A stretch of DNA of 63,372 nt, the filler included, from an uncultured bacterium (GTDB lineage: Bacteria > CAYUVA01), in NCBI GenBank assembly GCA_964448115.1. It is 3 parts of 3 records of this genome, joined end to end, with 100 filler letters (N's around TTAATTAATTAA, not from the genome) between each part and the next. Parts side by side here need not be neighbours in the genome. Positions count along the whole stretch, not along the records: positions 1 to 27,663 come from CAYUVA010000051.1; 2 more parts are not named here. The stretch is one strand, 5' to 3'. Positions 922 to 63,372 of the stretch are shown here, in pieces; position 1 is the first letter of the stretch, and each line of letters opens with the position of its first letter. Both the position numbers and the translations under genes were made by a program. The notes beneath the pieces are model-generated. The model was not told the DNA's origin, made no database searches, and was given only the letters and a program-made list of their open reading frames with translations.

Positions 922-3900
922 ATGAGGTTGTATATAAATAAAAGCCTTGATACAAAGGCGTTTTTCCTGGTGGGTTGTCTTGTTTGCTTGTGCTTATCTG
1001 CCAATATAAGCCTGGCTGCAAAGAGCGATCAAGCAGCGCCTTTAGCTACCCCGACACCACCAGCAGAGAACCAGGTTATCATCTCGCCGACGCCGACACA
1101 TGTCTCCGGCTCAATCGATACAGACACCTACTGGTCTGCGATGACCAGCCCGGTCTATATCGACGGCGATACCTTCCTGGAGAACGGGGTTACGCTGACC
1201 ATCTTCGGCGGGGCAGAGATCCGCTTCACCGGCAACTATCGGCTTGAGATCCACGGCAAGCTGGTCGCCAGGGGATCTTATGGTGCTTACATCACCTTCA
1301 CCTCGAATTGCCCCTCCCCGCAGCCTGGGGACTGGAAGTTCATCCGCTTTGCCAACGACTCCATGCCAGCAAGCTACGATGAGTCTGGGGAATACCAAGA
1401 TGGCTGTATAATCGAGAACGCCATAATCGAGTATGCACGCCAGGGTGTGGTCTGCGATGGGGCTATGCCTTACATCCACCTCAATACCTTCAGGCACTGC
1501 GGTACTGAAATGGACAAGGGAGCTGGGATCGGATGCTATTACGATGCAGCTCCAAGGATAGAAGGGAACATCTTCAGGGATCTGTTCGCCATCGAGGGTG
1601 CGGGGATCTTCGCCAATGACTCGCACCCGCAGATCATCGACAATATATTCATAAGAAACGAGGCGGATCAGGGAGCGGCGATATTCCTCAATCTCGATTG
1701 TAATCCGCTGATATCGGGCAATACACTGGCTAATAATACAGCCAGCGGCTACAAGGGGGACCAGGTGGCACTGTACAGCAGCTACAGCTCATCTCCGAGC
1801 GTAAGCGGGCTGGTGGCGGTGCACAACGATTGCGGGGGAGTTTATGTAGAGTCCGGCTCCATGATCCACTGCACAATTGTGAACAATCAAGGGGATGGCA
1901 TTATAGGCACCCCGCTGAACATAAATCGATGCAATATATACGCAAATGAGGGCTATCAACTGCGCCTGAATTACGATGAGGATGTCAATGCGACCTATAA
2001 CTACTGGGGCACAACTGACGGCGAAGAGATCAACGGCTACATTTTCGACCGCAACGATTCCGCCTCGGTGGGCAGGGCGCATTTCGTGCCATATTTATCC
2101 TCCTGTGCTTATGATGCACCGATCCCGCCACCGCTTGAATTGCAGATAACCGAGCTGCCCGACCAGTTCATCCTGCAATGGATACCGGTAAACCATGCCG
2201 GTCTTATGGGCTACCAGATATACTATGATACCGACGGCAGCGGAGAGCCTTATGACGGCAAGAACCTCGACCAGGGGGATTCGCCGATCGGACTGGTGCC
2301 GAGGGAGGATTACACGCTCACCGGCATCGATCCCTCCAAGCGTTACTGGATAGCGATGAAGGCGATAAAATCCGGGTTCAAGGCGAGTTATTACTCCAAC
2401 GAGGTGAGCGGCACGCTGAGCACACTGACACCAACCCCGACCAACACGCCGACCATAACCCAAACTCCCACAGTAACGCCGACCATGACCAACACTCCCT
2501 CGATAACCGCCTCGCCGACAGCCACGCCGACCGTAACCCCCACCGGCATGTCAACCTTCACACCATCAGCAACCGGCACCCCAACGGTAACCAACACTCA
2601 GACTCCGACCAGCACGTCAACCGGCACCCCGACCAGTACCAATACGCCGACCTGCACTCCCACCCATACGCCGGTGCCGGAGACCTGGATCGAGCACGAT
2701 ACCACCTGGCACCTGGAGGGAAGCCCCTATTATCTTTTAGGCAACCTTTATATCGGCAATGGAGCGACTTTAGTGATCGAAGCCGGCTGCGAGATATATT
2801 TCCTGGTTCCAGGGCGGATAAGCGTCGAGGAAGGGACGCTGGTAGCTCGCGGCTTTGAGGATCAGCGCATCCTGTTCACCGGCTATGGCTCCACCAATTG
2901 GCAAGGGATCGCCTTCAAGGACGATGCAGTGGATGCTCAATACGATCCCAGCGGTGGTTGGGTCAGCGGGTGTATCCTGCAGAACTGCGATATCTACAAG
3001 TCATCGCTGGCAATTTATATACAGAAATCCTCGCCGTTCATAGATAGCTGCAATATCCGATACAACATCGGCAGCGGCGCCTTGAGCGGCGCTATCCAGG
3101 TGGTCAACCAGGCATCTGCGCGCATCGAGGGTAATACGATAAGAAACAACGCCGGCGGGGTAGGGGGCTTGTTTATATATAATGCCTCGCCCCAGGTTCG
3201 GAATAACATAATCATCGACAACATAGCCGACGGCTCAGGGGGACAGGCTGCCGGCGGAGTGAGCGTCTTTTTCACAGACAGCGGTCCGGCTCCATTCATC
3301 GAGCATAATATAATAGCCAGGAACTGGAGCCAGGATGGCGCCGGGGGAATCTATGTCGATTACCGCTCCAATAACGCCGAGATCAATAACAACCTGATCT
3401 ATTACAACGATGGCGATGGGGTGTGGGCTGGAGGAGGTCAATATCACTATAACGCTATCGTACTGAACAATGGTATCGGCATTACTGGAACCACCGCAGG
3501 CTCACCTGATTATGTAACCTACAACGCCATCTATGGTAATGTCAGCTACCAGGCTGCGCTCGCTTGCGGAATCGGAGTCGATGGCACCTATACATACTGG
3601 GGAACGACCGATGATGAGCTAATAGCTGAGATGATCTATGATCAAAGCGATGATGCTTCCCTGGGTATATATTATTATGACCCGATCCTCGAAGAGATGC
3701 ACCAAGACAACATGATACCTCCTCCCATCGGCATCGAGCACACGCATAACGGCTTAGTGCTTTATCTCAGTTGGCTGCCGGTAAACCATCCCGATGTAGC
3801 CGGCTACAATATCCACTATGACTTCGATGAGCCGGGCTTTCCCTTCGAGGGGACTGGTGCGCCCCAGGGGGATTCCCCCATTACAGTAGGCGATGTTACC

Positions 3901-4554
3901 GAGTGCCAGGTAACCGGCTCCGAGGCAGGTCAGGTCATCTTCGCTGCAATAACCACGCTCACCTCCACTGGCGAGAGCTGGTATTCCAAGGATATCATCC
4001 ATCAGATCGGGATGGAGACCGCCACGCCAACAGCCACGCCGACCCACTCCGCAACCGCCCAGCCGACCAGGACGCCGACCGTAACCAACACGCCGAGTGT
4101 AACCCCCACTCAGACGCCGACGATCACATCAACGCCGACCGAGACGCCGACCATAACCAAGACGCCTACTAGTACGCCCACTTTCACCAATACGCCGACC
4201 AAGACGCCGTTTTTCACCGTCTCGCCGACTGGTGGAGCATACAATCCTCCCAAGATACTGCTCGGCGGATACATGGCTGCCAACATCACGAAGGAGCTAG
4301 GGGGCTTGTTCGAGATGCTCGCTATGGTCTCGGACCCTGATGGACACAAGATATTGAAGGTCGAGATCCACTACAACAACATGCCAACCGGCGTGCAGTT
4401 GCCAGCCTTCAACCTGGAGGACGGCGTTTACTGGATGACCGGACCTCGTATAGAACCGGGCATCGAGCCGGCTGAGTTACTGCTTCAACTGCGCGCCACT
4501 GATATCACTTTCTCGATGAGTTCATTCTGGCCTTACCTTTCGGTGGGAGGTTGA
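922..4554 (+). CDS. Large exported protein: 2x [right-handed beta-helix + FN3-like + Thr/Pro linker] + shared C-terminal WPxLxV domain
   Basis: Signal peptide; Asn-ladder repeats (I.GN.I..N.A..GAGI); FN3-like W...GY.I.YD segments; TPTxTPT linkers; internal duplication. Confidence 0.85.
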
Positions 4555-5838: not shown

Positions 5839-7395
5839 TTGAATATCATTCCTATTTTGATTATAAAAGATTCTGTGTTCAGGAGAGATCGTATTTTATT
5901 TCTTTATGTATTAGGGGCTTTATTTTTAGGGGTTTACCTCTGTTTTGCTTTCCCTGGTTCTCCATGCTGGGAATCAGAGGACACCTGCGTGGGTCGCAAT
6001 CTCATTGTCGCCGATATGGATAAGAATGGCTTCAATGACCTTGTAGTGCTGGATGGCGGACTTCCTATCTTCCAGTCGGATCACCAGGTGATACGAATTT
6101 TTTATAATCAATATGGCACACTAAACAAGAATATTGGATATAGTTCAGCAGAGTATTCTTTTTATACAAGATATCTAAACACCATATCCCTCGGCCATCT
6201 GGATGATGATGGCTATTTGGACCTTGCGGTGGATCTCGGACAACGAGGGGTAATGATCTACTACAATAACCAGCAGGGAGCCTTCGAGGATGAGCCAATA
6301 GTGCTGGAATATACCGAGCAGGCAGATTATTATTATACCTTCGGCGCTGACTTTGCACAGATCGAGGATCTTACTGGCGATGGATATGGTGAGGTGATAG
6401 CACTGTGGTTCCATAGCCTGCGTATTTATCCTAATATTCAGGGAGTTGTTAGCTCTGATCCACAAGTAATAACCTGGTCGCCACCACCGACCAACCAAAA
6501 TACCCATTTCAAGAGCCTGGCTATCGGCGATGTCAACAATGATAACTTCAAGGATATCGTGGTTAGCTACCAGCCTACCATGCTAGGTGGCAGGGAAGGG
6601 GTGGCTCTTTTCATAAATAACATTGGCAAATTTAGCAATACACCCGATTGGTGGTGCAAGCAGACCGGAAGAGCGAACCTCGTTGATGTAAATCAGGATG
6701 GATATTTAGACCTGGTTCTTAACTCCCGGATCTTTCTAAATGATCATGGAACATTTAATCAAGAGCCTGATATAACCAATCAATTATACGCTGGAATATG
6801 GAGGGACCTGGATAACGATAGCTATCCTGATCTCGCCCTGGAGTACATGGACAAGAACCTATGGCTTGTGTTGAACAAACAAGGCTCGATAGCCCCCTCT
6901 CCTGCATGGAGATATATTTCCGAGCATCGCTTCGGAGACCATGCGATCGGCGATCTGAACAATGATGGCATAAATGACCTTATTATCTCTCTAATGGAAG
7001 GACACATAGTTTACCAACCCCAAGAAATAGTCGTTTTTTATAATGATGGCGTATTCCCAGAGCCTGGGGCACCTAGATGTTATTTCGCTGGTTACCTGAA
7101 CTCTGCCCTGAGCAGTAGCGGCGGTGGATTGATATGGATGCTCGCTTATATCCAGGATCCAGTGAGTGCCTATGATATCAAGGCTGTGGAGCTATATTAT
7201 GGCACCATGTCAACCGGCATTTATCTTACCGATGAGGGGGATTGGTGGGACCTGGAGAGGATGGATGGTTGGTATGGGCTTTATATGCAAGTGTCGCCCG
7301 GGATGCCAACAGGAGCATATCTAATGACCATTTATTTGAGCGACTATGATGGTTTTAGCAACCTTAGCTGGCCTTATCTAAATGTTGACTATTGA
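5839..7395 (+). CDS. FG-GAP/VCBS-repeat exported protein with shared C-terminal WPxLxV domain (start codon uncertain)
   Basis: About 7 DxNxDGxxDL-type repeats (DMDKNGFNDL, LDDDGYLDL, DVNNDNFKDI, DVNQDGYLDL, DLNNDGINDL); hydrophobic N-terminal segment. Confidence 0.85.
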   Translation: MNIIPILIIKDSVFRRDRILFLYVLGALFLGVYLCFAFPGSPCWESEDTCVGRNLIVADMDKNGFNDLVVLDGGLPIFQSDHQVIRIFYNQYGTLNKNIGYSSAEYSFYTRYLNTISLGHLDDDGYLDLAVDLGQRGVMIYYNNQQGAFEDEPIVLEYTEQADYYYTFGADFAQIEDLTGDGYGEVIALWFHSLRIYPNIQGVVSSDPQVITWSPPPTNQNTHFKSLAIGDVNNDNFKDIVVSYQPTMLGGREGVALFINNIGKFSNTPDWWCKQTGRANLVDVNQDGYLDLVLNSRIFLNDHGTFNQEPDITNQLYAGIWRDLDNDSYPDLALEYMDKNLWLVLNKQGSIAPSPAWRYISEHRFGDHAIGDLNNDGINDLIISLMEGHIVYQPQEIVVFYNDGVFPEPGAPRCYFAGYLNSALSSSGGGLIWMLAYIQDPVSAYDIKAVELYYGTMSTGIYLTDEGDWWDLERMDGWYGLYMQVSPGMPTGAYLMTIYLSDYDGFSNLSWPYLNVDY

Positions 7396-7396
7396 G

Positions 7397-7885
7397 CTAT
7401 TGGGTGGTTCTGGTCAACGGATAATTGGGTAGCAACCGGTTCCAGGTTTTTACATTAAGCACATTACAGCCGTTGAAGATGGTATTTTTCCATTGGTCTG
7501 CAATCCCGAAAAGGGGGAGCTTTCTCCTGAGCATCTCTGATAAACCAAGCATAGCAGGCTCGGAGAGATTATCGATATCTATCAGGACTATACAAACAAT
7601 CGGTTTATTAGTGCGACCAGATGCCCATTCATACAGAAAACTATCCCTGAAGGTATAGGTCAGGTCGGTGATGAAATCATAAGCTCCTAGTTCCTGCTTC
7701 CTATATGCTTCCTTTATCTGCTGCGGATCCGCGACCAGGAGATACAGGATTTTATCCTGTAACTCGACAATAAAATCTACTGCCTTCATACAATGCAACA
7801 TTCCGTGTTCCTGACCGGCGAATCTCCTGGCTTCGATAGCCTCAGAGAAGTCGAATCTCAACCCGTTTATCCTGAATGCCTTCAT
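7397..7885 (-). CDS. Hypothetical protein, PD-(D/E)xK-like partner of the adjacent ATPase
   Basis: ATGA overlap with upstream ATPase; KAVDFIVE...LYLLVADP resembles a D...ExK nuclease core with E/K substituted. Confidence 0.6.
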   Translation of the reverse strand: MKAFRINGLRFDFSEAIEARRFAGQEHGMLHCMKAVDFIVELQDKILYLLVADPQQIKEAYRKQELGAYDFITDLTYTFRDSFLYEWASGRTNKPIVCIVLIDIDNLSEPAMLGLSEMLRRKLPLFGIADQWKNTIFNGCNVLNVKTWNRLLPNYPLTRTTQ

Positions 7886-8919
7886 TGGTTCGACTCCTTC
7901 TTCTCTTTATCCATTAGCAGTTTCTTGATCTCGCGGTCATAAACATCCATGTAGGCATCTGCGATCGGATTGATCGGTAATTGAAAACATGAGGGTGCGC
8001 TTCGCACCTTGATCTCATCCTCATAACGATAAAGAACATGATACATAAGGTCGTCTTCTTCCTCTCTTTGCAGCTCCAGCTCCTTGAGCAGCAAGTAGCT
8101 ATGGGTGGCCATAAATACCTGGACTCCCATCTGTTGTAAATGCAGCAATATCCTTGCCAGCAGTTTTATTGTTTTAGGGTTAAGATCCGCTTCAGGCACA
8201 TCCCAAAACAGGACTGAGCCATCGTGAAGGGTTCCATTGCGAATAAGATGCCCGAGCAGAGCCAGCTTGCGAAGCCCCTCGCCGAGAAGGCTGAATTCGA
8301 GGTTGCCATGGCTGGAGCGCAGGAAGAATTCCTCGTGTTTGGACATGACCTTACCCCCACTTAACTCCTCAATTATATCAATAGATTCCTTTTTTCTGTG
8401 TTCGGTTGGACCCCTCAGCGCGGGGATCAGTGCATAGCCGATTAAATCTACCTCTATCTCCTCGAAGCTCATATCGCTTGAATCGTACAAATCACGGTAA
8501 TTGGGAGCATTTATCAAAACCTCGCTGGATGGTATATAAGCGCAGGCTAGAATCTGCGCTTTCCAATCAGGAAGCCCGTGAATATTTATATCATTGGACT
8601 TAGAGTTATCGGTATGGCTGGTGAAGGATACATACAACCTGGTTTTATCGCTGAAGATCTCAATAACCGTGCTGGCTATCCCCCGTTGTCTTTGTACTAA
8701 CCGACCGACCTTTTTCCCGGTGGGCAGAAAGTCTCTTATTAGCTTATCGATAAAATTATCCTCTGATATGGTGATATCGCAGCCAGCATAAAGCACCTTC
8801 AGTAAGTGAGTTTTGCCAATTCCATTTTCTCCAATAAGTATGTTAATACCCGGAGAAAAGAAAAGATCCAGATTTTTGAAGGCTGTAAACTGTTCGATTC
8901 GAAGCCGTTTTATTCCCAT
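7882..8919 (-). CDS. ABC-type ATPase (AAA_15/AAA_21-like)
   Basis: Walker A GENGIGKT, signature-like LGEGLRKL, Walker B VLFWDVPE, H-loop ATHS; AAGGAG RBS upstream. Confidence 0.85.
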   Translation of the reverse strand: MGIKRLRIEQFTAFKNLDLFFSPGINILIGENGIGKTHLLKVLYAGCDITISEDNFIDKLIRDFLPTGKKVGRLVQRQRGIASTVIEIFSDKTRLYVSFTSHTDNSKSNDINIHGLPDWKAQILACAYIPSSEVLINAPNYRDLYDSSDMSFEEIEVDLIGYALIPALRGPTEHRKKESIDIIEELSGGKVMSKHEEFFLRSSHGNLEFSLLGEGLRKLALLGHLIRNGTLHDGSVLFWDVPEADLNPKTIKLLARILLHLQQMGVQVFMATHSYLLLKELELQREEEDDLMYHVLYRYEDEIKVRSAPSCFQLPINPIADAYMDVYDREIKKLLMDKEKKESNQ

Positions 8920-9193: not shown

Positions 9194-9685
9194 CTAATCC
9201 TCTGAGATACTAATAATACGGTAGTTTTCACCTCGCGGGGGGTATTTGGTTATATGTATGGTTCCCCGGTTATCTTGCCAGATATAGGTTTTCTTGGAAG
9301 CTTGTACTGCCTCTTTAGCCTCCAGTTTCGACTCAGCCACCTTTTGGAGCTGCTGCAAAGATTTTTTGAGGCTCTGATTTTTCTGTTCTAGGTCGGCAAT
9401 CAGCTTCTCATTTATCGCATTTTGTTGCTTCAGATCGTTCAACTGCTTGTTGTACTGGCTCGTCTTATCGGTCATCTCCCTTTCCATCCCCCCGATAATA
9501 GGCTCGTAGCGGCTGCGGGAAAACTTGTTCTCCAGGAGCATGCCGATAAAAAGACCGATGATAAGAGAATTTATGATGGAGAAGATGACTGACCGCAGCG
9601 GGAAGCTAATCGGCTTCTTCTCGTAGTCTCCCTGCTTTTGCATGGCAGCTTGTTCTTTCAGTATCCTGTCGGTAAGCTCTCCCAT
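9194..9685 (-). CDS. Membrane-anchored coiled-coil protein with C-terminal DUF4124-like motif
   Basis: One TM helix, Q/K/E-rich coiled coil, TYIWQDNRGTIHITKYPP at the C-terminus. Confidence 0.6.
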   Translation of the reverse strand: MGELTDRILKEQAAMQKQGDYEKKPISFPLRSVIFSIINSLIIGLFIGMLLENKFSRSRYEPIIGGMEREMTDKTSQYNKQLNDLKQQNAINEKLIADLEQKNQSLKKSLQQLQKVAESKLEAKEAVQASKKTYIWQDNRGTIHITKYPPRGENYRIISISED

Positions 9686-9874
9686 GGGAGCATAGTAAAA
9701 AAAAAAGTCGAACTAATAAGGGAACTATAGATACTTTACACCCAACCGTCAAGGTGTAAAAAAACAAAGGCAGGAAAATAATCGTTACTTCTCTCACATC
9801 GTATATTCCATCCTTTCATTTGTGCCTAAAATCTGCTACAAAGATAAGCGAGTTAACAGATAACAGGCAGGGCT

Positions 9875-11026
9875 ATGATGATCAAACAAGTTAACATACT
9901 CCCAGTACTGGCGATCATATTATTATTGATGCAAGGCAGTGATTCGTTTGGCTACCTGCAGGTGGGTGATACAGCCACCGATTTCATGCTCCAGGACAGC
10001 TATGGCAACTCGGTGAGCCTGTCCGATTTTTCTGGTGAGATCATCCTTCTAGCCTTCTGGCGCCGTGGCTGAAGTGCCTGTGCGCAGGAGGCTTCTGCGC
10101 TTGAAGGCAGCGTATGGCAGGTCTATGCCAACCAGGGCGTGCAGGTGCTTGCCATTGGCTGGAACGCATCCATAGAAGAGGCGGCTCAGTGGGTAAAGGA
10201 TCATGGGCTTTCCTATCCGGTACTCGCAGATCCAGATGGATCGGTAACTTTCCAATACACACCCCTTGCGGTACCATGGATCGTAATCATCGACCATTAC
10301 ATGGAGATTAGGCTCACCGATGCCGGGGCTGCTAAAAACAAGGATGTAAGCATGGCTGACATCATCAACATGATTGAAGAAATCCTCGATGAGCCACCAT
10401 TGGCACCCACCCTACAGGAGCCTATAATCGACGGGAGCGACCTGCTCCTCGCCTGGAGTCGAGGTATAGAGTCTGATCTGGCAGGATATACTGTACACTG
10501 GGGTGGTGAGTCAGGGAGCTATGTATCGTGTCTGGAGATAACCGATCCCAATGTTACCGATGCAAGATTGGAAGATTTAGATCCTGGATTATATTACCTT
10601 GCGGTTACCGCCTTCGATGGCAGAGACAACATCAGCGACTATTCCAACGAAAAAAGCGCCACTGTGCCGTCCCCGACACCGACTCCCACGCCGACGCAGG
10701 CTTATTCACCTCCCAGGATACATATCGGCGGATACTATGATACGCGACTTGTCGCCGGGCAAAGCGGGGATCTTTTTCTTTTTGCCAAGATAACCGATGA
10801 GGACAACGATATAGATAGTGTGGAGATCTATTTCCAGGAAGCGGCGACTGGAATTTACTTAAACGATAGCGGCGAAGATGGCGACTGGGCAGTGGAGGAT
10901 GACCTTTACTCCTGGAAGATAGAAGGAGTAACCATAGATTACCCATTGCAGGCGCTGCTGGAGATACGATGCAGCGATTGGCAGAGCCTTTGGGCTGATA
11001 GCTGGCCCTGGCTTACCGTGAAGTAG
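9875..11026 (+). CDS. Exported selenoprotein: redoxin (TlpA/AhpC-TSA-like, U-S-A-C) + FN3 + Thr/Pro linker + WPxLxV domain; UGA 10070-10072 read as Sec
   Basis: ORFs 9875..10072 and 10139..11026 are in the same frame with 22 sense codons between them. Joined sequence VGDTATDFMLQD...VSLSDFSGEIILLAFWRRG-U-SACAQEASAL...YPVLADPDG...AVPWIVIID forms a complete thioredoxin-fold redoxin; hairpin directly 3' of the UGA. Confidence 0.88.
10075..10109 (+). promoter_or_regulatory. Putative bacterial SECIS element
   Basis: Lower stem TGCCT(10075-79)/AGGCA(10105-09); upper stem GCGCAGGA(10082-89)/TTCTGCGC(10093-10100); G-containing apical loop ~17 nt after the UGA. Confidence 0.75.
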
Positions 11027-12983: not shown

Positions 12984-15548
12984 ATGAGAAACCTATCGTT
13001 GCTTTTACCATTGGTGGCTGTCTTTATTTATCATGCAGCCACAGTGCCCTTTAGCGATAACTATCCGCCATATACGCTGGAGCATACGCCAGCCAAGTGG
13101 TCGAGCAATGTCTCTCGCAGCACTAATATTCAGGTCAGGATCGAAGATACCAGCTCCGCGATAGATGTTGATAGCATTGAGCTTTTCATCCGCGGTGTCC
13201 AGGTAACCCCTACTGCCACGCATCCTTTCCCTGGCAACTACAAGATCGCGCTCGTATTTTATGATCCTCCCACTGATTTCGATTATGGCGAGCGGGTGCA
13301 TGTGGAGCTGAATGCCTGCGATATAGTGCCTAACTGCATGAACGAGGCGTACTACTTCACCATAGAAGAGGCACCCTGGACGGCTACGCCGACCATCTCT
13401 CCGACCCCGACCGATACCGGCGCACCGACCTGGACGCCGAGCTATACTCCGACCATGACTGCCACCCCGACCAAGACTCCAACCTTTGGTCCCTCACCCA
13501 CGCCGACTAATACAGGCACCTATACCTGGACACCGTCTGTAACCCCGACCGCATCCCCCTTTTTCGATAACACGGCTCCGCGCACCTTCAATCACACACC
13601 GGCGCGGTTCTCCAGTCATAATGACAACTACACCCAGGTATCCTTTGACATTACCGATGATGGCATAGGATTGAATCCTACGACGGTCAGGCTTCTGGTC
13701 AATTTTAATGCGGTGGATCTGAACATGAACGAGACCGAGCCGGGAGTATATCATTGCAGGTATCAGACCACGGAGCCGTATCCCTATTCCAGTCGGGTCG
13801 ATATAAAAATAGAGGGCTGCGACCTACAGACGACTCCAGAGCCGAATTGCATGTTGGATAATACCTATTTTTTCTACATCGAGGATGCTCCCACGCCAAC
13901 AGCTACCCCGACCCCCTTCTTGTCTGCCACACCTACCTGCACTCCTACTGGTACGCCGACTTCAACCCCACTAGGAGGTGTTATATACCAGGATACGACC
14001 TGGTATGCTCACGATAGTCCCTTCTTTATAATAAACGACCTCACCGTTGCACCTAATGCGACTCTGACCATAGAGCCGGGTTGCGAGATCAGGTTTAAGG
14101 GGATGTACACGCTAAAAATAGACGGCACTCTGATCGCCAGGGGAGAGAGGGCAGCCCCGATAATCTTCACCTTCGATAGTCCATATCCATCGCCTGGCTC
14201 CTGGGAGTGCATCAAGTTTACCAACCAGTCGCTCTGGGCGGTGTTGGATGAGGAATATAACTGGCTTGCCGGATGCGTAATGGAGTGGTGCCATGTTTTC
14301 TATAGCAAGGAGGGGATCTCCATCCAGGGGGCATCCCCGCTGATCAAGAAATGCAAGGTTATGTACACTAATAACCGTCTCGATCTCGGCGGTGCGATCA
14401 ACATCATCGACGGCGCATCTCCTTATATCATAAACACCCAGGTATCCTTGACCCTGGCTAGAAGCGGCGGTGGAATTTACATAAATAACTCTACGCCTTT
14501 GCTCATGGGATGCCAGGTGGTGGGAAATGTGGCTCAGACCGAGGGTGGGGGAATATATGCCACCTACCTTGCCTATCCCAAGATCCATGATTGCAGCATC
14601 ATCGGCAACGACCAGGATGGCATATTCCTGGGAGACGGCGTGGATGCGGAGATATTACGATGCAATATAACCCGAAACAGCGATTGCGGGATAAGAGGCA
14701 ACTCTACCGCATTTCATGACAGCAATATCATGAACAATGGCGAATACGATGTACGAAATACATCTGAGCAGACCTTCGAGGCGCAGGAAAACTACTGGGG
14801 CACCACCGATGAGGGGCAGATCGAGGAGAATATCTACGATGACGATGATGATCAGTTCGTCGGTGCGATCAATTTCCAGCCGTTTTTAGAGGAATTTTCA
14901 CTGCAACCCCCGCCCTTGCCCCCGCAGAATGTAAACATCGTAGCCGGCGATGGCAAGGTTACTCTATCTTGGGACGAGGGGGATCTGGAGAGGATCGAGC
15001 ATTATCGGGTTTACTACGACACCGACTCCGGGGTTCCCTACAACGGCACCGGCTCCGCGCAAGGCTCCTCGCCGATAGATATAGGCGGTTTCCCCGAATT
15101 CACGGTCAGCGGCCTGACCAATGGTGTAAAATACTACTTTGCGGTAACCGCGCTGCTCAAGGACGGCACAGAGACCTGGTATTCCGAGGAGGTGAGTCGC
15201 ATCCCCTTCAAGGACATATACAAGGATGCACCGGTGGTGCTTGCTGCCGGCTATTGGGATACCTACCTGGATTACAACTCGACCCATCTATCAATGATTG
15301 CACTGCTGACCGAACCACAAGGCTTGGATAATATTGCCTCGGTTGCCATTTTTTATCAGGGCGCGCCCAGCGGCATCCTCTTGTTCGATGATGGCGCATC
15401 CGGCGACTTCGGCGCTGGAGATGGAGTATTCGGTTTTAGCACCGACCTTCCCGTTGGATTAGATCCCTTGTGGCTGCTTCTCGAACTGAATAGCGTTGAC
15501 AAGACTGGCAATAAAGGGCGGCGCTGGCCGTTCCTGGTCGTGCAATAA
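12984..15548 (+). CDS. Exported protein: 2x Ig-like repeat + Thr/Pro linkers + beta-helix + FN3 + shared C-terminal WPxLxV domain
   Basis: Signal peptide; duplicated HTPA..SS...T...I.D....ID..S...ACD...NCM...YYF.IE module; beta-helix/FN3 similar to the 922..4554 modules. Confidence 0.85.
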   Translation: MRNLSLLLPLVAVFIYHAATVPFSDNYPPYTLEHTPAKWSSNVSRSTNIQVRIEDTSSAIDVDSIELFIRGVQVTPTATHPFPGNYKIALVFYDPPTDFDYGERVHVELNACDIVPNCMNEAYYFTIEEAPWTATPTISPTPTDTGAPTWTPSYTPTMTATPTKTPTFGPSPTPTNTGTYTWTPSVTPTASPFFDNTAPRTFNHTPARFSSHNDNYTQVSFDITDDGIGLNPTTVRLLVNFNAVDLNMNETEPGVYHCRYQTTEPYPYSSRVDIKIEGCDLQTTPEPNCMLDNTYFFYIEDAPTPTATPTPFLSATPTCTPTGTPTSTPLGGVIYQDTTWYAHDSPFFIINDLTVAPNATLTIEPGCEIRFKGMYTLKIDGTLIARGERAAPIIFTFDSPYPSPGSWECIKFTNQSLWAVLDEEYNWLAGCVMEWCHVFYSKEGISIQGASPLIKKCKVMYTNNRLDLGGAINIIDGASPYIINTQVSLTLARSGGGIYINNSTPLLMGCQVVGNVAQTEGGGIYATYLAYPKIHDCSIIGNDQDGIFLGDGVDAEILRCNITRNSDCGIRGNSTAFHDSNIMNNGEYDVRNTSEQTFEAQENYWGTTDEGQIEENIYDDDDDQFVGAINFQPFLEEFSLQPPPLPPQNVNIVAGDGKVTLSWDEGDLERIEHYRVYYDTDSGVPYNGTGSAQGSSPIDIGGFPEFTVSGLTNGVKYYFAVTALLKDGTETWYSEEVSRIPFKDIYKDAPVVLAAGYWDTYLDYNSTHLSMIALLTEPQGLDNIASVAIFYQGAPSGILLFDDGASGDFGAGDGVFGFSTDLPVGLDPLWLLLELNSVDKTGNKGRRWPFLVVQ

Positions 15549-27886: not shown

Positions 27887-29344
27887 ATGAGCATTGAAAA
27901 GCTGCCATCTATCATACTATGCCTTGTCGTAGCCCTTGCAGGCGCAGCTTATGGCGCTACTTATGACCACACATTCTTCGCCCTGAGCAGCGGATATACC
28001 TCGGAGGATAACTTTACACTGGAGTATGATCTATATACCGGCCAACCGAGAGCCGGAGGCATCATGGATGATATCAACGGCTGGTACTTTGTCTATCATG
28101 GATATTATTACTTTGACATCGGTTCTCTTCCCACCGATGCTAATGTCCAGACCGCTATATTGACCCTGCGCACTTTTTTCGTGCCCGATCATGGCGCATG
28201 GAATGAGAGGATGCTCGACTTCAGGGACTTGATCCTGGCTGATATCCCGGAGAATGAAACTCCTTATGCAGTGTTCACTCGCGCTTCATCGGGACAGTAT
28301 TACGGAGAGCATTATCTAGTCTCATCGGATGCACAGATACTAAATATCAACATGAGCTCAACCTGCCTTGACCATATTGAGCAAAGACATAATACGCAAG
28401 GCTACGATTGGTTTGGGGTCAGCTTCAGGGTACTGCCTCCCTTTGAGCTTGGCTATCCGTACTCCAGCTTCAATGCCTTTAATGACCCAACATTGGGATA
28501 CCGTGGAACGCTGCGTTTAGTCTTTGACAGCGAGACGCCCTTCCCGACTGCCACTAATACGCCCACAGCAACAGGTGCAGCCGAAGCCACCCCCACGGCA
28601 ACTCCCTCAATGACGCCAACATCTACGCCAAGCTCCACACCGTCAAGTACACCAAGTGCTACTTTTACCCAAACACCAACCGCGACTGCAACCGATACGC
28701 CTACAAGTACGCCGAGTCCGACTCCCACCAGCACTCCAACCCAGACGGCAACCATGACTCCAAGCGCAACCTTCACCCAACTTCCGACCTCAACGCCGAC
28801 CAGCACTCCTGATGCTCAATATTGGTGCGTCAAGCCGATAGTCCCAGATGTTCCGATTACATTCTGCGACCCTACAGCCGAGCACAAGGTGGTGATAACC
28901 TTCCGCAATGTCATTGGCTCAGGTAACGCCCTGGTGATCATTAAAGATTATGCTCCACCTGATTTGGCTTCCAGTGATGTGCTTCGACTGCAATTCGAGA
29001 TCATAGTCGATGAAACGGTAACCTTTTATATCGCTGATGCAGTGTTCTATTATACTGAGGCAGATCTCCCCAGCGGCATGAGCGAGGGGCAGATAACAGG
29101 TATGGCAAAGTATAATAGTTATTTGCAGAAGTGGGATTACATCGGAGGTACGATAGATATCACCTCAAATAGCGTATCTGTAGAAAACATAAACCAATTC
29201 TCATTATGGACTATTGGAGCACAGGATGCTTATATCCTACAGGTTCCAAGTTTGAATTTTGTCAACCTGATAGCATTAGTTGTTTTATTGTCCACTGCTA
29301 TAGTCGCTTTGAGTAGAAGATCCTTTGAGCCAAGGCTTAGATAA
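27887..29344 (+). CDS. Surface protein: DNRLRE-like N-domain, Thr/Pro/Ser linker, beta domain, IPTL-CTERM-like anchor
   Basis: Signal peptide; [20 protein letters not shown]; long TPT linker; ends [16 protein letters not shown]...RR. Confidence 0.75.
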
Positions 29345-30791
29345 TGCGGGGCATTGGTGGAGAGCTGCCGCCACCTTTTGCTCGCCGCGCTTTCTTGAAG
29401 GTGGTATTCACCTGGCGCAGCGGGGGCATCTCTATCCGCTTACCGGATAGAAGCTCCTCGATGGTAAGTATTTGCAGCCTAGGATACTTTTTATTCCCCC
29501 ACGGCGATATGTAGAATCCAGCGCCGGCAGCCTCGGAGCGCATCGACTGGGTTGGTTTCTGCATGGTTATCAGGACGCCGATTTCTGCATTTTCGCGCTC
29601 CAGAACGCCAAGCAGATCGCGAATATGCGAGACAGCAACTTTGCCCGATTTAACTGATATGATGACCTGGCTAGTCTTGTCTTTTTCCGAGCCATCGTGG
29701 AAATAGAGCCTTCCATCGATCCCCTGGTCAGCGCCCCTTCTTTTCTCCACTGGTCTTGCCCCGACCAGCCCTAGCGCCCACCACTGGAACTGAAAGCGAT
29801 CTTCGGCTGCCAATGCCTTTGCATCAGGGAGCGAGGTCGGCTCGCCGAGAGTCTGGTATCTCTCCAGGATCTCCTCGCCAAAGGTGCTCAGCTGACGGTT
29901 CTTCATAAGGTTGATCGCAATATGTGTGATATCGATCCCTATCCATCGGCGCTTAAGGCGCTCGGCGACCACAATCGTTGTCCCGCAGCCACAAAACGGA
30001 TCAAGCACCAGATCCCCCTCATCGCTGCTCGCCAGGATTATCCGCTCCAGGAGCGCTTCCGGCTTCTGGGTCGGATAGCCAAGGCGCTCTGATGAAGTTC
30101 GCCCGACCATGTCGATCTGCCAAACATCCTTCATATTCACCAGCGTGTACCAGCCGATCTCGTCCTGATACTCCTCAACCCCCTTGAATCTATATGGCTT
30201 TAATCCTCTATTATATGACTTCTCTTTCAGGATATTAAACTTGTATCTTTTACTATCCTTAGAATAAAAAAATATTGTCTGGTGCTTTCTGGCAAATCGT
30301 TTCTTGGTAGCTCCTCCGCTCTTGAAAGACCATATTATCTCGTTTTGAAAGTTCTTAGCCCCAAATACTGCATCCATAAGCAGTTTAAGAAAGTGGCTCG
30401 CTGTGGGGTCACAATGCAGGTAGATGGAGCCGGTCGGCTTGAGCACCCTGCGCAGCTCGACCAGACGTAGCGCCATCATCGACAGGTATGCGAGCATGTT
30501 GTTATGTCCCAGAAACTGGCGAAATGCTTGCATGATCTGCGATACTACACCACCTGCTTCGACAATCTCTTGATAAGCCTCTGCTGCAGCCTGATCCCAT
30601 CGCCAGGTGTCATCGAATGCCTTGATCTGCGAGGCTGACCGAGAGCCGTTCTGCTCGGCGAATAGCACATTGTAGGTCGCCTTGCTGTTAAACGGGGGAT
30701 CGAGGTAGATCAGGTCAACGCTTTCATCAGCGACATATCGCCTCAGGACATCGAGATTATCGCCATAATACAAGGTATTAGCTACAGTCAT
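29337..30791 (-). CDS. N6/N4 DNA methyltransferase fused to Mrr-like nuclease domain
   Basis: [28 protein letters not shown]-terminal GADQGIDG...IISVKSG. Confidence 0.9.
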
Positions 30792-30876: not shown

Positions 30877-32157
30877 TCATCCCAGCCGTATAGCTCTCAG
30901 GTAGTTATTAACCCAGGCATAGACATCGTTATTGGCTATCTGTTTGCGCATTATTTCCAGGCGTTGTCTCTGCTCCTCTTGGCTCATGTAAAACGCCCGA
31001 TGTATCGCCTCTGCGGTGCCCTCAACATCGTTGGGATTTATCAACAATGCACCACCGGATAACTGGGTTGCTGCACCTGCGAATTCGCTGAGTATGAGCA
31101 CACCCCTTTCCTGAGAACATGCGCAGTATTCCTTTGCCACCAGGTTCATTCCATCCCGCTCGGGAGTTATAAGAGCTATCTCTGCGGTGCGATACATACT
31201 GGCAAGCTCCACCATATCGAGCTTGCGGAAGAAGTAGTGGATCGGTGTCCAGCCCGGCATAGTAAATTCGCCCGCTATCTCGCCTACAAGCTCATCGAGT
31301 AGGCTTTTTATCTCCTGGTATTCAGTTACCCTTTGTCTGCTGGGGACCACCACCTGAATAAGTACTACCTTGCCGTGAAGCTCTGGATACATGCGAAGAC
31401 ACTGGCGGTAAGCCTTGAATCGTAGCGAGATACCCTTAGTATAATCGAGTCGATCCAAGCCCAAGATAATCTTCATCTGGGGATAGTTCTCGTGGAAAAG
31501 CCATGCACCTTTTGTAACCTTCGGCGACCTAGCCAGTTTATCCCAGGCTTTGAAGTCGATGCTTATGGGAAAGGCTTGCACGCGCAGGCTATGTCCTGAA
31601 GATGTTTGTATCCTGCTAAAGGCAGCAGTAGAGCTAATCTTAAACCCCCTGAATAATCCTTTAGCACACTGGATGAAATTGTTGAAATCGCGCCGGGTCT
31701 GAGATCCAGCTAGATCATAGGCTAAAAAAGATCTCAGAAGCAGGGCTATCCCGGCTGATTTATCTTCCATATACTTACTCAAACCTTTTCCTTTCAGCAG
31801 TTGGCGTGCCTTATACAGACCTTCCTTTACTTTGTCGGTTAATCGGACAAGGGTTGATCCACCATCAGGCGATATCCGCTCCCAGCCATGGCAGCCCCAT
31901 ATCTCAGGCATAGGATCGAGTTTCAACAAGTCCAGCAAATCCTTTGCCGACCTTCCGCTGATAATGACTATTCGAGTATGGTTAGCTTTCAACATAGTTT
32001 GCAGGATTTGCTTGACTTCAGGATAAGGTGTAGCCTGCATCGGATTCGCCTTGAATGGCGCTATCGTGCCATCGTAGTCAAGCATTAATAATCTGTAAGG
32101 CGCTGAGGATAGCTGGACAAAAAATTGCTCAGTCGGTTTGCCAAGCTGTTGGTTCAT
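30877..32157 (-). pseudogene. otsB/otsA: In-frame chimera: N-terminal part of trehalose-6-P phosphatase joined to C-terminal part of trehalose-6-P synthase
   Basis: LMLDYDGT, IISGR, GCHGWE, EDK (HAD/TPP), then an abrupt switch near 31740 to LAYDLAGSQT, LGLDRLDYTKG, DGMNLVAKEY, LSEFAGAA (GT20). HAD motifs III/IV and the GT20 N-lobe are absent. Confidence 0.75.
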
Positions 32158-32159
32158 CT

Positions 32160-32908
32160 TTAACCGACCACCATCTGGCGACTCATGCCGATACGCAGCC
32201 CGTGCATCAGGGTCAGGTATTCCCGCAGGTGTCTGGTAAGCAGAAAGTGTTCCCTGACCATCTCCCTGCCCTTTTTACCCATAATCTTCATCTTATGGGG
32301 ATTATGCAACAGATACCTGATATGATGCGCCGCGCCCTGTGGGGTATGCACCAAGAAGCCGGTGTGATAATCGTAAACCTGCAGCCTGATTCCACTGACA
32401 TCCCCGCCTATTACTGGCTTTGCCTTCCAGTGCCCCTCGGTAACGGTCAGCCCAAAGCCCTCTTTGGTCGATTTCTGAATTATTATATCAGCTAACCTTT
32501 GCAGAGCATTCACGGTAAGATGAGCATCGCCAGGAAGGTCGAGAACATGGATATCCGGGTCATCACCGGCTTGCTCCAAGACATCCTTTAAGACCTCTTG
32601 GCTCTCCGGATCGTCAGTTGCACTTCCACCGGCAAGCACCAACTGGACAGGGAAATACTTTTTTACTATGCGGTATGCCTCTATCACTCCTATTGGGTCT
32701 TAGAACTTGTCGAAGCGTGAGATCTGCACCAGTAACGGTCTATCTGCATCATTGGTATCATCCATGCTAGTATCTCTGCTACTCCGCCGCCGACCTTGGT
32801 TGAATTTATATGCAGCACAGTAGCGCCCTTCAGGAATCCAGCGAGCTGGCGCAGTTTCCTTATTACACCATCGCCAACGATCGGCTCGTATTTACCTAGT
32901 ATCGACAT
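32160..32908 (-). pseudogene. treT: Trehalose synthase TreT-like glycosyltransferase, disrupted
   Basis: N-terminal HINSTKVGGGVAEIL; frameshifting deletion near 32743; then RPLLVQISRFDKF*DPIGVIEAY (TAA at 32700-32702) and QKSTKEGFGLTVTE. Confidence 0.85.
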
Positions 32909-33593
32909 TGCAAAAGCGCCTTGACCGCTTCCTTTCTCAGCTCGTTAAGTGATAAATATGACATATCAATTGCAGCCAGCGCTTTGATATAAGGCTCGCC
33001 AACCTTGCCCCAGCCTTTGAGCCAGGCGGTGAAGTCATCCTTTTTCTCCGGCACCCGCCACCTGGCTTCAACCAGGTGAAAGTAGATACTTCCTTGGTTC
33101 ATTTCAGGGATGGCATGAATCAAATCCCAAGGACTGGTAATATCGATACCAGTATCGAATACAACCGAGATAGCTTTAAGAAAAATAAACTCGTGTTCCC
33201 GCTTCGCCCAGGGTATCATCTGCACCTCGCTGAGCCTTTCCTCCAGGATATCGATCAAATCGACTCGAAGATCATTCATAGTATCGTACTCATAGGGATT
33301 GATGATACCGAGCCTCTCTGCAAGCACCGGATCGGCAAGCTCCTTGTCAGCCCATAGCGCGAAATCATTTCTGTACTCCGGGTCATCAAAAGTCGGGCTT
33401 AGCAGGGTCTCGCAGAAGTGATGGAACAGCACCGCCTCTTCGCATGCCCTAACCCCTTGCAGCAGTTACCTGAGATTCAGTGCTCGAATGCCTGTTGTCT
33501 GTACTACCAAGGAGCAATCCTTAATCCTGAAGCTAGGGTAAGAACCTTCATTGATTTTCTTGGTGATTTTTTTCTTGATTTCCTTTGTGCCAT
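32896..33593 (-). pseudogene. DUF5752 family protein (TreT-associated), disrupted
   Basis: Upstream of the ORF-track start the frame reads FRIKDCSLVVQTTGIRALNLR*LLQGV (TAA at 33466-33468), then HHF...EYRNDFALW...SIYFH.VEAR...DDFTAW. Confidence 0.75.
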
Positions 33594-55407: not shown

Positions 55408-57861
55408 GTGGAAGCGATGATAAACTGGGGCAAATTTACCGACAAAGCAAAAGAAGCGGTTGCACTAGGGCAACAATACGCATCCAGGATGGGGCAACAC
55501 CATCTCAATACAGACCATATCCTTCTTGGAATGGTCGATCAAGATAATAGCATCGTACTCAAACTCTTCGAAGAGATGGGATTCGATCCCCAAAAAGCAA
55601 AGGATGTTATAAGGGACCGGGTCATCCGCTCTCAGGTGCTATCCTCGAGGGTGCCGCGCGGTTCGGAGCTGCAAATATACCTCACCGAGGAGACGGACAG
55701 GCTGCTCAATAACGCAATCGAGGAGTCTAATCGTCTCAACGACCAGTTTGCTGGCTGCGAGCATCTCTTCATCGCCATGGTCAAGGATAGTTCATCGACC
55801 GCTGGTGCCATTTTACAGAACCTCGATGTAAACCTTGAGAGGCTCTACCAATCATTGCAAAAGGTTCGTGGTTCCCAGAGGAGCATGGATGAGTCCGCTG
55901 AGGAGAAATACGATATGCTCAAGCGCTTCACCGTTGACCTGACCGACCTTGCTAGGCAAGGAAAGCTTGATCCGGTTATCGGGCGCGAAGACCTCATAAA
56001 AAGGGTTATCCAGATACTCTCGCGGCGAACCAAGAACAATCCGGTACTTATCGGCGATGCCGGAGTGGGAAAGACTGCAATAGTCGAGGGACTGGCTCAG
56101 AAAATAGTCAGCAACGAGATACCTGAGATGCTCAAGGATAAAAATGTGATATCGCTTGATTTATCGAGTGTCGTTGCTGGTTCAAAGTACCGCGGGGAGT
56201 TCGAGGAGAGACTCAAGACCATCATTGACCAGATAAAGGAAGCTTCTGGAAAGATTATCCTTTTCATAGACGAGCTGCATAATGTTGTCGGAGCCGGCGC
56301 TGCCGAGGGGAGCATCGATGCCTCGAATATGCTCAAGCCGGCGCTGGCACGCGGGGAGTTGCAATGCGTTGGTGCTACCACCATCGATGAATATCGCAAA
56401 CATATCGAAAAAGATGTTGCTCTGCAGCGCAGGTTTCAGCCAGTGTTGGTCGAAGAACCTTCCATCGAGGACACCATAAAAATCCTGCATGGATTGAAGG
56501 ATAAATATGAGAAGCACCATGATGTCTGCATCACTGAGGATGCTATCATAGCAGCCGCTAAGCTCTCTGCACGGTACATCAGCGATCGCTTCCTTCCGGA
56601 CAAGGCTATTGACCTCATTGATGAGGCTGCCTCAAAGGTGCACCTGGAGGCGACCTATATACCACCAGAGATAATCAGGCTGCAAAAGGAGCTTGAAGAG
56701 CTTAACCAAAAGGAGCAGGAGGCGGCATCAATAGGAGATTACGAGGAGGCAGCTAGAATAAAACAGCAGAAGATTAAACTCAACGAAGAGCTTGCTGAGC
56801 AGAAAGATAGGCATGAGAGAGAGCGTGTAACCTGTGATTTGACCGTGGATGCAGAACAGATAGCACAGGTTATCTCAAGATGGACAGGAATACCGGTAAG
56901 CAAGGTGATGGAGACCGAGAAGGACAAGCTGGTCAACATGGAGGATAACCTCCACAAACGAGTGATCGGGCAGGACGCAGCTATCAAGGCGATCTCTGAG
57001 GCAGTCAGGCGCTCTCGGGCAGGGCTGTCTGATCCCAACCGACCTATCGGCTCCTTCATCTTCCTTGGACCAACTGGAGTCGGAAAAACCGAGCTGGCAA
57101 AGGCGCTGGCTGAATTCCTCTTCGATGATGAGAGTGCACTGGTCCGCATCGATATGTCAGAATACATGGAGAAATTCTCCGTTTCACGCCTCATCGGCGC
57201 ACCACCAGGCTATGTCGGTTACGAGGAGGGAGGGCAACTCACCGAGGCAGTCAGGCGCAAGCCTTACTCTGTTGTGCTTTTCGATGAGATCGAAAAAGCA
57301 CACCCGGAGGTATTTCACCTCTTGCTGCAACTGATCGATGATGGAAGATTGACCGACTCAAAGGGCAAGGTAGTGGACTTCAGAAACACTATTGTAATAA
57401 TGACCTCCAACCTCGGCTCCAGGTATATACACTCCTTGACACCAGATCTCAGCCCAGAACAGCTTAAACAGGAGTTAGAGCGGATGCGTAAGGCGGTAAC
57501 CGAGCAGCTACATTCCTTCTTCAAGCCTGAATTTCTTAACCGCATTGATGATATAATCATCTTCGAGCCGCTCACCAGGGAGCAGGTGAAGCAGATAGTG
57601 CATCTACTGATCGAGCGTGTCCATAAGCGCCTGGCAGACAAAAACATCAGGCTCGAATTAACATCTCAGGTCTTTGATCATCTGTCTGAGATCGGCTTCG
57701 ATCCCAACTATGGCGCTCGTCCACTGAAGCGAGCTATCCAGCGTATGATAGAGAACAAGATCGCTTCGGAGATGATCAAGCAAGGCATATCCCAGGATGC
57801 AACCATTAAAGCCTATCTCAAGGACAGCCAAATTGCCATAGAGGTACAGAAGAGAGACTAA
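55408..57861 (+). CDS. clpC: Clp ATPase, ClpC-type
   Basis: Clp-N repeats; two AAA+ modules ([16 protein letters not shown]); short UVR-type middle domain (DYEEAARIK); start may be ATG 55417. Confidence 0.88.
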
Positions 57862-62840: not shown

Positions 62841-62958
62841 ACCCGGCAGCAACCTACTCTCCCACATCCTCTCGGATGCAGTACCATCGGCGATGGAGGG
62901 CTTAACTTCCGTATTCGGAATGGGAACGGGTGTTTCCCCTCCTCTATAGCCACCGGGC
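62841..62958 (-). rRNA. rrf: 5S ribosomal RNA
   Basis: Reverse complement contains CACCCGTTCCCATTCCGAATACGGAAGTTAAG and GATGGTACT...GGGAGAGTAGGT; ends approximate. Confidence 0.96.
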
Positions 62959-63055
62959 GATCTTGATTAAGATTTTATATAAAATTTCATCTGGCGACCG
63001 GAAGAATTCACGGTTCCTTTGTATGCGGAGAAAGCCTTTAAATTTCTCCATAATA

Positions 63056-63372
63056 AGGGATCAAGCCGAACGACCTATTAGTACCGGTCGGCTTTGACAT
63101 TACTGCCTTTACACCTCCGGCCTATCAACCTTGTGTTCTACAAGGGGTCTTGTTAGAGGCATTACCCTCTTGGGATATCTAATCTTGGGGTGTGCTTCAC
63201 GCTTAGATGCTTTCAGCGTTTATCACATCCGGACATAGCTACTCTGCAATGCTCCTGGCGGAACAACAGAAACACCAGAGGTCCGTCCACCCGGGTCCTC
63301 TCGTACTACGGGCAGCTCCCCTCAGATATCCTGCGCCCACAGCAGATAGGGACCGAACTGTCTCACGACGTT
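63056..63372 (-). rRNA. rrl: 23S ribosomal RNA, 3' end (partial)
   Basis: Sarcin-ricin loop AGTACGAGAGGAC, GATAAACGCTGAAAGCATCTAAG and AACGTCGTGAGACAGTTCGGTCCCTATC on the minus strand. Confidence 0.97.

Follow-up and report, generated by a model that had tools for sequence, protein, structure and literature searches.

Within a 63,372-nucleotide stretch of DNA from an uncultured bacterium (the window; GenBank assembly GCA_964448115.1), we found that positions 9875-11026 form, with a probability that we put at roughly 0.87, one intact gene that is predicted to encode an exported selenoprotein of 383 residues and that has been mis-split by gene callers at an in-frame TGA. An initial annotation of this DNA had proposed a hidden, exported selenoprotein with a UxxC redoxin (U being selenocysteine), and this core of the proposal is borne out by a TGA that is conserved among homologues with Cys as the alternative, by a covarying hairpin at a fixed register behind the TGA, by the presence of selA and selB in the genomes of relatives, and by the recovery of the TGA in a second sequencing run of the same sample.

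Reading frame and in-frame TGA

The gene lies on the plus strand and runs from an ATG at 9875 to a TAG stop at 11024-11026, with a single in-frame TGA at 10070-10072. When this TGA was translated as selenocysteine the frame was open up to 11026, which gives the 383 codons followed by TAG that had been stated initially. Selenocysteine is then residue 66 (U66) in the local sequence LLAFWRRG-U-SAC-AQEAS, and it aligns to the first Cys of the motif in ResA (1st9) and in 2l5o, which places the TGA at the first position of a thioredoxin CxxC as had been claimed. The TGT at 10079-10081 encodes Cys69, the predicted resolving cysteine of U-S-A-C, and the C69 column is nearly invariant in an alignment of the redoxin domains of the homologues (alignment A4).

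Read with translation table 11, the locus breaks up into an open reading frame (ORF) of 65 amino acids (aa) at 9875-10072 and an ORF of 295 aa at 10139-11026, and P0002 (293 aa), a gene call in the databases, is limited to the part 3' of the TGA. The Pfam matches to AhpC-TSA (residues 30-146) and Redoxin (residues 29-159) both run across residue 66, so the 65-aa ORF alone would cut the fold, in agreement with the initial annotation. Only the segment 5' of the TGA has a signal peptide. On the 3' side of the TGA the frame stays open for about 317 codons, with a chance of about 2e-7 by our own estimate from 3 stops per 64 codons, and no decay of a pseudogene type was seen in this part, which is free of added stops and frameshifts, has conserved domains, and holds a domain that is homologous to neighbouring proteins and to 838 other proteins.

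The stretch is present in three runs (X1, X2 and X3), all from a single sample. X1, which may be the source of the window itself, spans the stretch with 0 differences, and a separately assembled contig of 477 nt from X2, at a depth of 4.2, covers 9680-10156, likewise with 0 differences and with the TGA kept; the TGA site lies outside the coverage of X3. The read support for the TGA comes from this one sample. A scan for promoters and terminators was uninformative, with 7 promoter-like sites against 4.3 +/- 2.3 expected.

Conservation of the TGA among homologues

Pattern scans of genome contigs and of metagenome contigs revealed no close relative of the full-length protein, and a word-indexed protein search with the full-length protein gave only 7 weak matches and no second copy of the exact architecture. 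Two of these 7 matches, P0006 (522 aa) and P0008 (524 aa), were found to start exactly where the redoxin domain resumes past the CxxC motif, which suggested truncated gene calls. We fetched 80 metagenome loci with related proteins and examined those 26 in which the match takes in the redoxin part; in the remaining 54 it is confined to a C-terminal domain. An in-frame TGA was present in the same column in 25 of the 26 loci, at 37-100% identity to the query P0008, and reading these 25 upstream in frame yielded a signal peptide followed by a conserved FW...-U-xx-C. The 26th locus (L018) is without upstream DNA. The redoxin domain of the window protein is 27-38% identical to these loci over about 175 residues, and the aligned homologues all begin with a similar hydrophobic leader.

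Additionally, a profile of these redoxin domains (A4) was searched against species-representative genomes and gave 42 loci, with U in the motif column of 35 and Cys in the remaining 7. The automatic assignment of these loci was 29 U, 6 Cys and 7 unassigned, and the last 7 were resolved by reading the sequences. The hosts are metagenome-assembled genomes (MAGs) labelled CSSED10-310, Holophagae and other Acidobacteriota, Zixibacteria, Calditrichota and LCP-89, among others, and two of the sequences, L121 and L122, resemble TxxC and TxxU peroxiredoxin-type outliers. Such a mixture of selenocysteine and Cys forms is a classical signature of a selenoprotein family. The initial annotation had advised looking in homologues for Cys or a conserved TGA at this position, and the alignment contains both, the TGA in the metagenome and genome loci counted above and Cys in the other 7.

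Two of the homologues, L029 (U-G-G-T) and L107 (U-G-G-P), have replaced the UxxC motif and are without the resolving Cys, with the register of the hairpin kept. A large group of exported proteins of 600-860 aa with an N-terminal UxxC ResA-like redoxin was observed among the metagenome loci L001-L030 and the genome loci L081-L108. These have a long C-terminal part without Pfam matches that includes a conserved 'MEGGDTW' region, and the labels of their MAGs include Acidobacteriota and CSSED10-310. Relatives of the query are encoded in at least 474 metagenome stretches, and most among those listed match only its C-terminal part.

A SECIS-type hairpin behind the TGA

A stem-loop of the selenocysteine insertion sequence (SECIS) type was identified inside the coding sequence at 10075-10109 on the plus strand, on the basis of its fold, its register in relatives, compensatory changes and its absence from Cys forms. 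Directly after U-S-A-C the sequence reads GCGCAGGA-GGC-UUCUGCGC (10082-10100), in which 10082-10089 pairs with 10093-10100 to form an upper stem of 8 bp; the lower stem is formed by 10075-10079 and 10105-10109. The spacing rule for bacterial SECIS elements is 16-37 nt, and the GGC loop (10090-10092) begins 17 nt past the UGA. As in bacterial SECIS elements, the stem-loop stands just 3' of the UGA and has a small apical loop with a G; this loop is GGC in the window, GAG in L090 and GAA in L102.

In relatives the hairpin was found at exactly the same register, with stem sequences that differ. Covariation was determined in alignment A2, which consists of the window and 19 distinct loci and has a helix of 12 pairs. 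In this helix 90.4% of the cells were paired, compared with 77.2 +/- 1.3% in shuffles, and 8 pairs had changed on both sides, compared with 3.3 +/- 1.1; none of 500 shuffles attained the observed values. When the partners were slid by 1-3 columns as a control, 30-55% of the cells were paired. The genome loci provided a more independent control, with a stem of 4-8 bp at the register in 23 of 29 U forms and stems of 0, 0, 0, 0, 0 and 2 bp in the six Cys forms. Some Cys forms without the hairpin encode similar peptides, for example CPGCNEEAAHLE. The codons GAG-GCU (Glu72-Ala73), which are invariant, make up the loop together with the upper end of the stem, indicating that the RNA structure constrains the protein sequence.

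Selenocysteine machinery and host lineage

Genomes with U forms were found to contain selA above the curated cut-off (5 of 5) and selB (5 of 5). Similarly, selA was above the cut-off in all three genomes of the nearest relatives, which brings the overall count to 8 of 8 relatives' genomes. Two separate selA-like matches above the curated cut-off were present in each of G011, G012 and G013, the genomes of L090, L102 and L105. The 63-kb window itself contained no tRNA, and no selA, selB or selD was seen among the ORFs scanned; the only Rfam families in it were the end of the 23S rRNA and the 5S rRNA. The 5S rRNA and the 3' end of the 23S rRNA are located at 62841-63372, at the end of the window, and the ClpC gene at 55408-57861. 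Judged from the matches of this ClpC, the organism seems to come from a lineage that has been poorly sampled.

Weighing of the selenoprotein reading and its alternatives

Several observations weigh against the selenoprotein reading. The capacity of the window organism for selenocysteine is unproven, and this is the chief source of residual doubt. In addition to the genomes with U forms, selA was found in 3 of 5 genomes with Cys forms, and there is therefore no clean contrast of presence and absence. The window ClpC is 47-49% identical to the ClpC of the relatives' genomes tested, and its best non-self match in a collection of 5.8 billion proteins is 61% identical, with matches labelled from several phyla. 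This makes the organism distant from all tested genomes and the selenocysteine machinery of the relatives only indirect evidence. The 67-nt stretch has an ordinary fold energy (z = -0.39), which is uninformative when taken alone. It is register and covariation that speak for the hairpin, and the covariation figures overstate independence because the structure was derived from the same, related sequences. Finally, the TGA was reproducible within one sample only, and one of the two runs that cover it may be the source of the window.

Part of the same evidence would fit a recent pseudogene, in which the TGA has arisen from the Cys codon (TGC or TGT) of an ordinary CxxC redoxin and decay has not yet reached the frame behind it. 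One substitution would be enough, Cys forms do exist (7 of the 42 genome loci) and the selenocysteine machinery of the organism is unverified. We nevertheless regard a pseudogene as improbable, as the 8-bp hairpin stands at the exact register of the U forms and is absent from 6 of 6 Cys forms, the nearest relatives are all U forms, and the 317 codons after the TGA have kept their frame and their conserved domains. A reading as two real genes, namely a secreted peptide of 65 aa (9875-10072) and a separate protein of 293-295 aa that starts at 10139 or nearby, is what table 11 produces, and the gene call P0002 corresponds to its second piece. It has very little to recommend it otherwise, since the split would divide across the TGA a single thioredoxin-fold domain that matches both Pfam and PDB, would leave the fibronectin type III (FN3) and C-terminal domains without a signal peptide, and comes back at this column in dozens of homologues that have diverged. 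Recurrence of a split at one column is a signature of recoding.

We attach equally slight weight to a sequencing or assembly error, and to a variant genetic code that reads TGA as Trp or Gly. The depth is low (about 4-10x) and only RF1 was seen in the window, which would leave room for either, but two runs give the TGA with 0 differences, and TGA behaves as an ordinary stop in the window, where it terminates 16 of 60 long ORFs. When the window was scanned for in-frame TGA codons with at least 45 open codons on either side, 21 candidates were obtained, and after their contexts were inspected by eye the TGA at 10070 was the sole one judged credible, so that reading through TGA rescues no other gene. 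On these two grounds an alternative code was rejected.

Redoxin domain and proposed chemistry

The catalytic part of the predicted selenoprotein is a ResA/TlpA-like redoxin domain of the thioredoxin fold, which spans residues 30-146 (9962-10312, plus strand) according to Pfam, PDB and an AlphaFold2 (AF2) model. Matches above the gathering thresholds were obtained for Pfam AhpC-TSA (PF00578; 76.8 bits, cut-off 26, E 1.8e-21) and Redoxin (PF08534; 56 bits, cut-off 26.6, E 5e-15), and the best matches among solved structures were 2l5o and Bacillus subtilis ResA (1st9), with E values of 2e-12 to 3e-12. The predicted local distance difference test (pLDDT) score of the AF2 model was 92-98 across the residue blocks 31-150 of this domain, and U66-S-A-C69 directly precedes helix 67-87, as in thioredoxin folds. 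P134 is invariant in alignment A4 and is probably the cis-Pro of the fold.

The window protein is similar to ResA, TlpA and CcmG (DsbE) in its export or anchor signal, in its CxxC-type site at the start of a helix and in the conserved Pro134, whereas it differs from them by selenocysteine in place of Cys and by two extra domains. Its score of 68.3 bits against NF002854, the NCBIfam model of the ResA subfamily, is below the cut-off of 170. NCBIfam also holds a curated model for a ResA-like selenoprotein of similar length (354 positions), NF041054 ('ResA-like WAxxUGC motif-containing protein', WAxxUGC_long), of which the window protein is not a member, as it scores 24.2 bits where the cut-off is 300 and has the motif WRRGUSAC, not WAxxUGC. 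Six relatives that were scanned likewise fell under the cut-offs of these NCBIfam redoxin and selenoprotein models. Genes for cytochrome maturation or for DsbD/CcdA were not seen among the window ORFs scanned.

From the RNA structure and the homologues it may be expected that the hairpin at 10075-10109 recruits SelB carrying selenocysteyl-tRNA, by which the UGA at 10070 would be read as selenocysteine. By analogy with ResA and TlpA, the selenolate of U66 would then attack the disulfide of a substrate, or another oxidised sulfur or selenium group, to give a selenenylsulfide, and C69 would resolve this selenenylsulfide. The two appended beta-sandwich domains could serve to retain the enzyme in the envelope or on the surface of the cell, or to route it there.

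Export signal, middle region and C-terminal domain

Inspection of the translation by eye revealed a predicted Sec-type signal peptide, MMIKQVNILPVLAIILLLMQGSDS, of about 24 residues (9875-9946, plus strand), and the AF2 model has a helix at residues 9-20 of this region. The redoxin domain is followed, at about residues 192-269 (10448-10681, plus strand), by a region that we tentatively assigned to the FN3 type through another protein, P0005. It shares 44% identity with residues 30-105 of P0005 (E 5e-15), and residues 23-96 of P0005 match Pfam fn3 with 35.7 bits (cut-off 25); the region is also 50% identical to P0004. No direct Pfam match of the middle region, including fn3 (PF00041), was obtained at E<=5, which makes the FN3 assignment a transitive one, and the AF2 pLDDT was below 50 for residues 179-275. 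A Pro/Thr-rich linker, PSPTPTPTPTQ, was read from the translation at 10667-10699 (plus strand).

The C-terminal domain (10700-11023, plus strand) is 108 aa long, has an Ig-like beta-sandwich fold and ends in ...SWPWLTVK. Its last 104 aa match the C-termini of three other ORFs in the window, which encode adhesin-like proteins of a surface type, with E values of 6e-11, 3e-8 and 1e-6. The paralogous domains are located on the plus strand at 7060-7392 in an FG-GAP protein (ORF 5839-7395), at 4237-4551 in a beta-helix protein of 1210 aa (ORF 922-4554), and at 15219-15545 in a beta-helix/NosD/fn3 protein of 854 aa (ORF 12984-15548), where the domain comes right after the fn3. Each of these window proteins has one copy, and the family ends in ...WPYL.V. 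The domain is thus real and common to the neighbours. A profile of the four copies matched 838 representative proteins at E<=1e-3, 121 of them at or below 1e-30. Among the best 149 of the 838 proteins, 136 have two tandem copies; the last copy lies at most 5 residues from the C-terminus in 119, and more than 50 residues follow it in 27. The family was found joined to FG-GAP, Big and fn3 domains, and some small proteins consist of a signal peptide and one copy only.

The C-terminal domain had no match in Pfam and NCBIfam, and the profile of the type A sorting domain of the type IX secretion system (T9SS; TIGR04183 / PF18962) did not match the tail of the window protein. It was modelled by AF2 as a 7-strand beta-sandwich with a pLDDT of 86.6, for which Foldseek returned only generic Ig folds from PDB (best E 5e-3). 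The tail was absent from all relatives that were fetched and was found in 0 of 5 of their genomes, the latter in a search without a positive control. The domain may nevertheless be a sorting domain, a suggestion that gains some weight from the T9SS sorting domain that the nearest relatives carry at the same place. Of the architecture given in the initial annotation, the redoxin, the export (by inspection) and the tail common to the neighbours therefore stand, and the FN3 domain has transitive support, whereas the tail matches none of the known sorting families and in other proteins is not terminal in every case. It had also been suggested that the enzyme acts on Cys-rich neighbouring surface proteins; the neighbouring proteins with the same tail contain 1.0-1.8% Cys, which is not strikingly rich and gives no strong pointer to substrates.

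Nearest relatives

A tree was made from 52 redoxin domains, which remained from 61 sequences after 3 without a profile match and 6 short matches (L109, L110, L111, L112, L113 and L119) were dropped. The window sequence grouped with L105 (LCP-89), L090 (Zixibacteria) and L102 (Calditrichota) with a support of 95/84, all of them U forms; the deeper placement is unsure, with long branches. These three relatives, all from MAGs, resemble the window protein in size (361 aa in L090, 363 aa in L102 and 365 aa in L105), in the UxxC motif and in the register of the hairpin. In the two that were scanned for domains, L090 and L102, a signal peptide, a UxxC redoxin, an Ig-like domain and a C-terminal beta-sandwich follow one another as in the window protein. 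Their Ig-like domain, however, belongs to the choice-of-anchor D/HYDIN type, where the window protein has an FN3-type domain, and both proteins end in a T9SS type A sorting domain, different from the Pfam-less tail of the window protein. Other relatives are 600-860 aa long and have long C-terminal parts without Pfam matches. The architecture had initially not been recognised. No other protein with precisely these parts turned up in the searches, but the architecture is not wholly without precedent, as some relatives match it in size and layout.

With TIGR04183 (cut-off 23) a score of 27.8 bits was obtained in L090 and of 44.7 bits in L099, and Pfam Por_Secre_tail gave 32 bits in L102. A UxxC redoxin followed by a T9SS type A sorting domain was thus observed at L090:3001-4083, L099:364-1812 and L102:2929-4017, with an Ig-like domain in between in L090 and L102. 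Going by their predicted domains, these proteins would be selenoproteins that leave the cell through the type IX system.

It is conceivable, and we put it forward as a tentative suggestion that is more doubtful than probable, that the window protein and its nearest relatives constitute a clade whose selenoenzymes reach the cell surface or pass beyond the outer membrane. A T9SS sorting domain would serve for this in the relatives, and in the window organism an undescribed Ig-like module that is shared with adhesin-like proteins, and the clade would perform selenocysteine-based thiol/disulfide (or chalcogen/metal) chemistry without a reductant of the DsbD type. If this were true, the Pfam-less C-terminal family with its 838 representatives would be a new module for sorting to, or anchoring in, the envelope.

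Relation to known selenoproteins

Redoxins of the AhpC/TlpA type with UxxC had been described in the initial annotation as known bacterial selenoproteins, and they are indeed an established predicted class, with UxxC TlpA/Prx-like selenoproteins listed in Table 1 of PMC13188914 and in excerpts of PMC1088965 and PMC9312934. The window protein shares with the members of this class, as characterised in those excerpts, the Pfam AhpC-TSA/Redoxin matches, the UxxC motif with selenocysteine for the first Cys, a bacterial SECIS within the ORF, and the existence of Cys homologues. The excerpts describe the known UxxC redoxins by the redoxin domain alone, and it is by these descriptions that the window protein is set apart, as it adds a signal peptide and the FN3-type and Pfam-less Ig-like domains. 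The enzyme class is known and the exported three-domain layout is new; the advance is an incremental one, because the class itself is well known.

In a full-text search of the literature no description was found of selenocysteine redoxins with Ig-like/FN3 domains and secretion tails, where supplementary tables could hold overlapping accessions, and no text was found that combines selenoprotein, TlpA and fibronectin type III. Selenocysteine and type IX secretion were mentioned together incidentally in one article, PMC12016528, in whose title and abstract neither term occurs.

For annotation, the result means that this gene, like dozens of its homologues, is split or cut short by gene callers, with P0002, P0006 and P0008 all beginning just after the TGA. 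As a consequence of such starts, exported multi-domain selenoproteins of MAGs of Acidobacteriota, CSSED10-310, Zixibacteria and Calditrichota are hidden in protein databases. Selenocysteine redoxins that are joined to Ig-like/FN3 domains and to secretion or sorting tails suggest that selenium-dependent redox chemistry may take place in the envelope or outside the cell.

Other genes in the window

On the minus strand, at 30877-33432, two abutting ORFs in the same frame (32160-32687 and 30877-32157) were found to have partial matches only, namely to the C-terminal part of a GT4 glycosyltransferase, to the first 77 positions of a trehalose-phosphatase and to positions 190-471 of GT20. A nearby DUF5752 ORF is without the first 37 positions of its profile. 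From these partial matches the ORFs at 30877-33432 look like rearranged or decayed genes for trehalose synthesis. Two further regions on the minus strand look, by their domain content, like defence-type genes. At 7397-8919 an ATPase of the AAA_21/AbiEii type adjoins a small ORF of no known family, and at 29337-30791 an N6/N4 DNA methylase is fused to a nuclease domain of the Mrr type.

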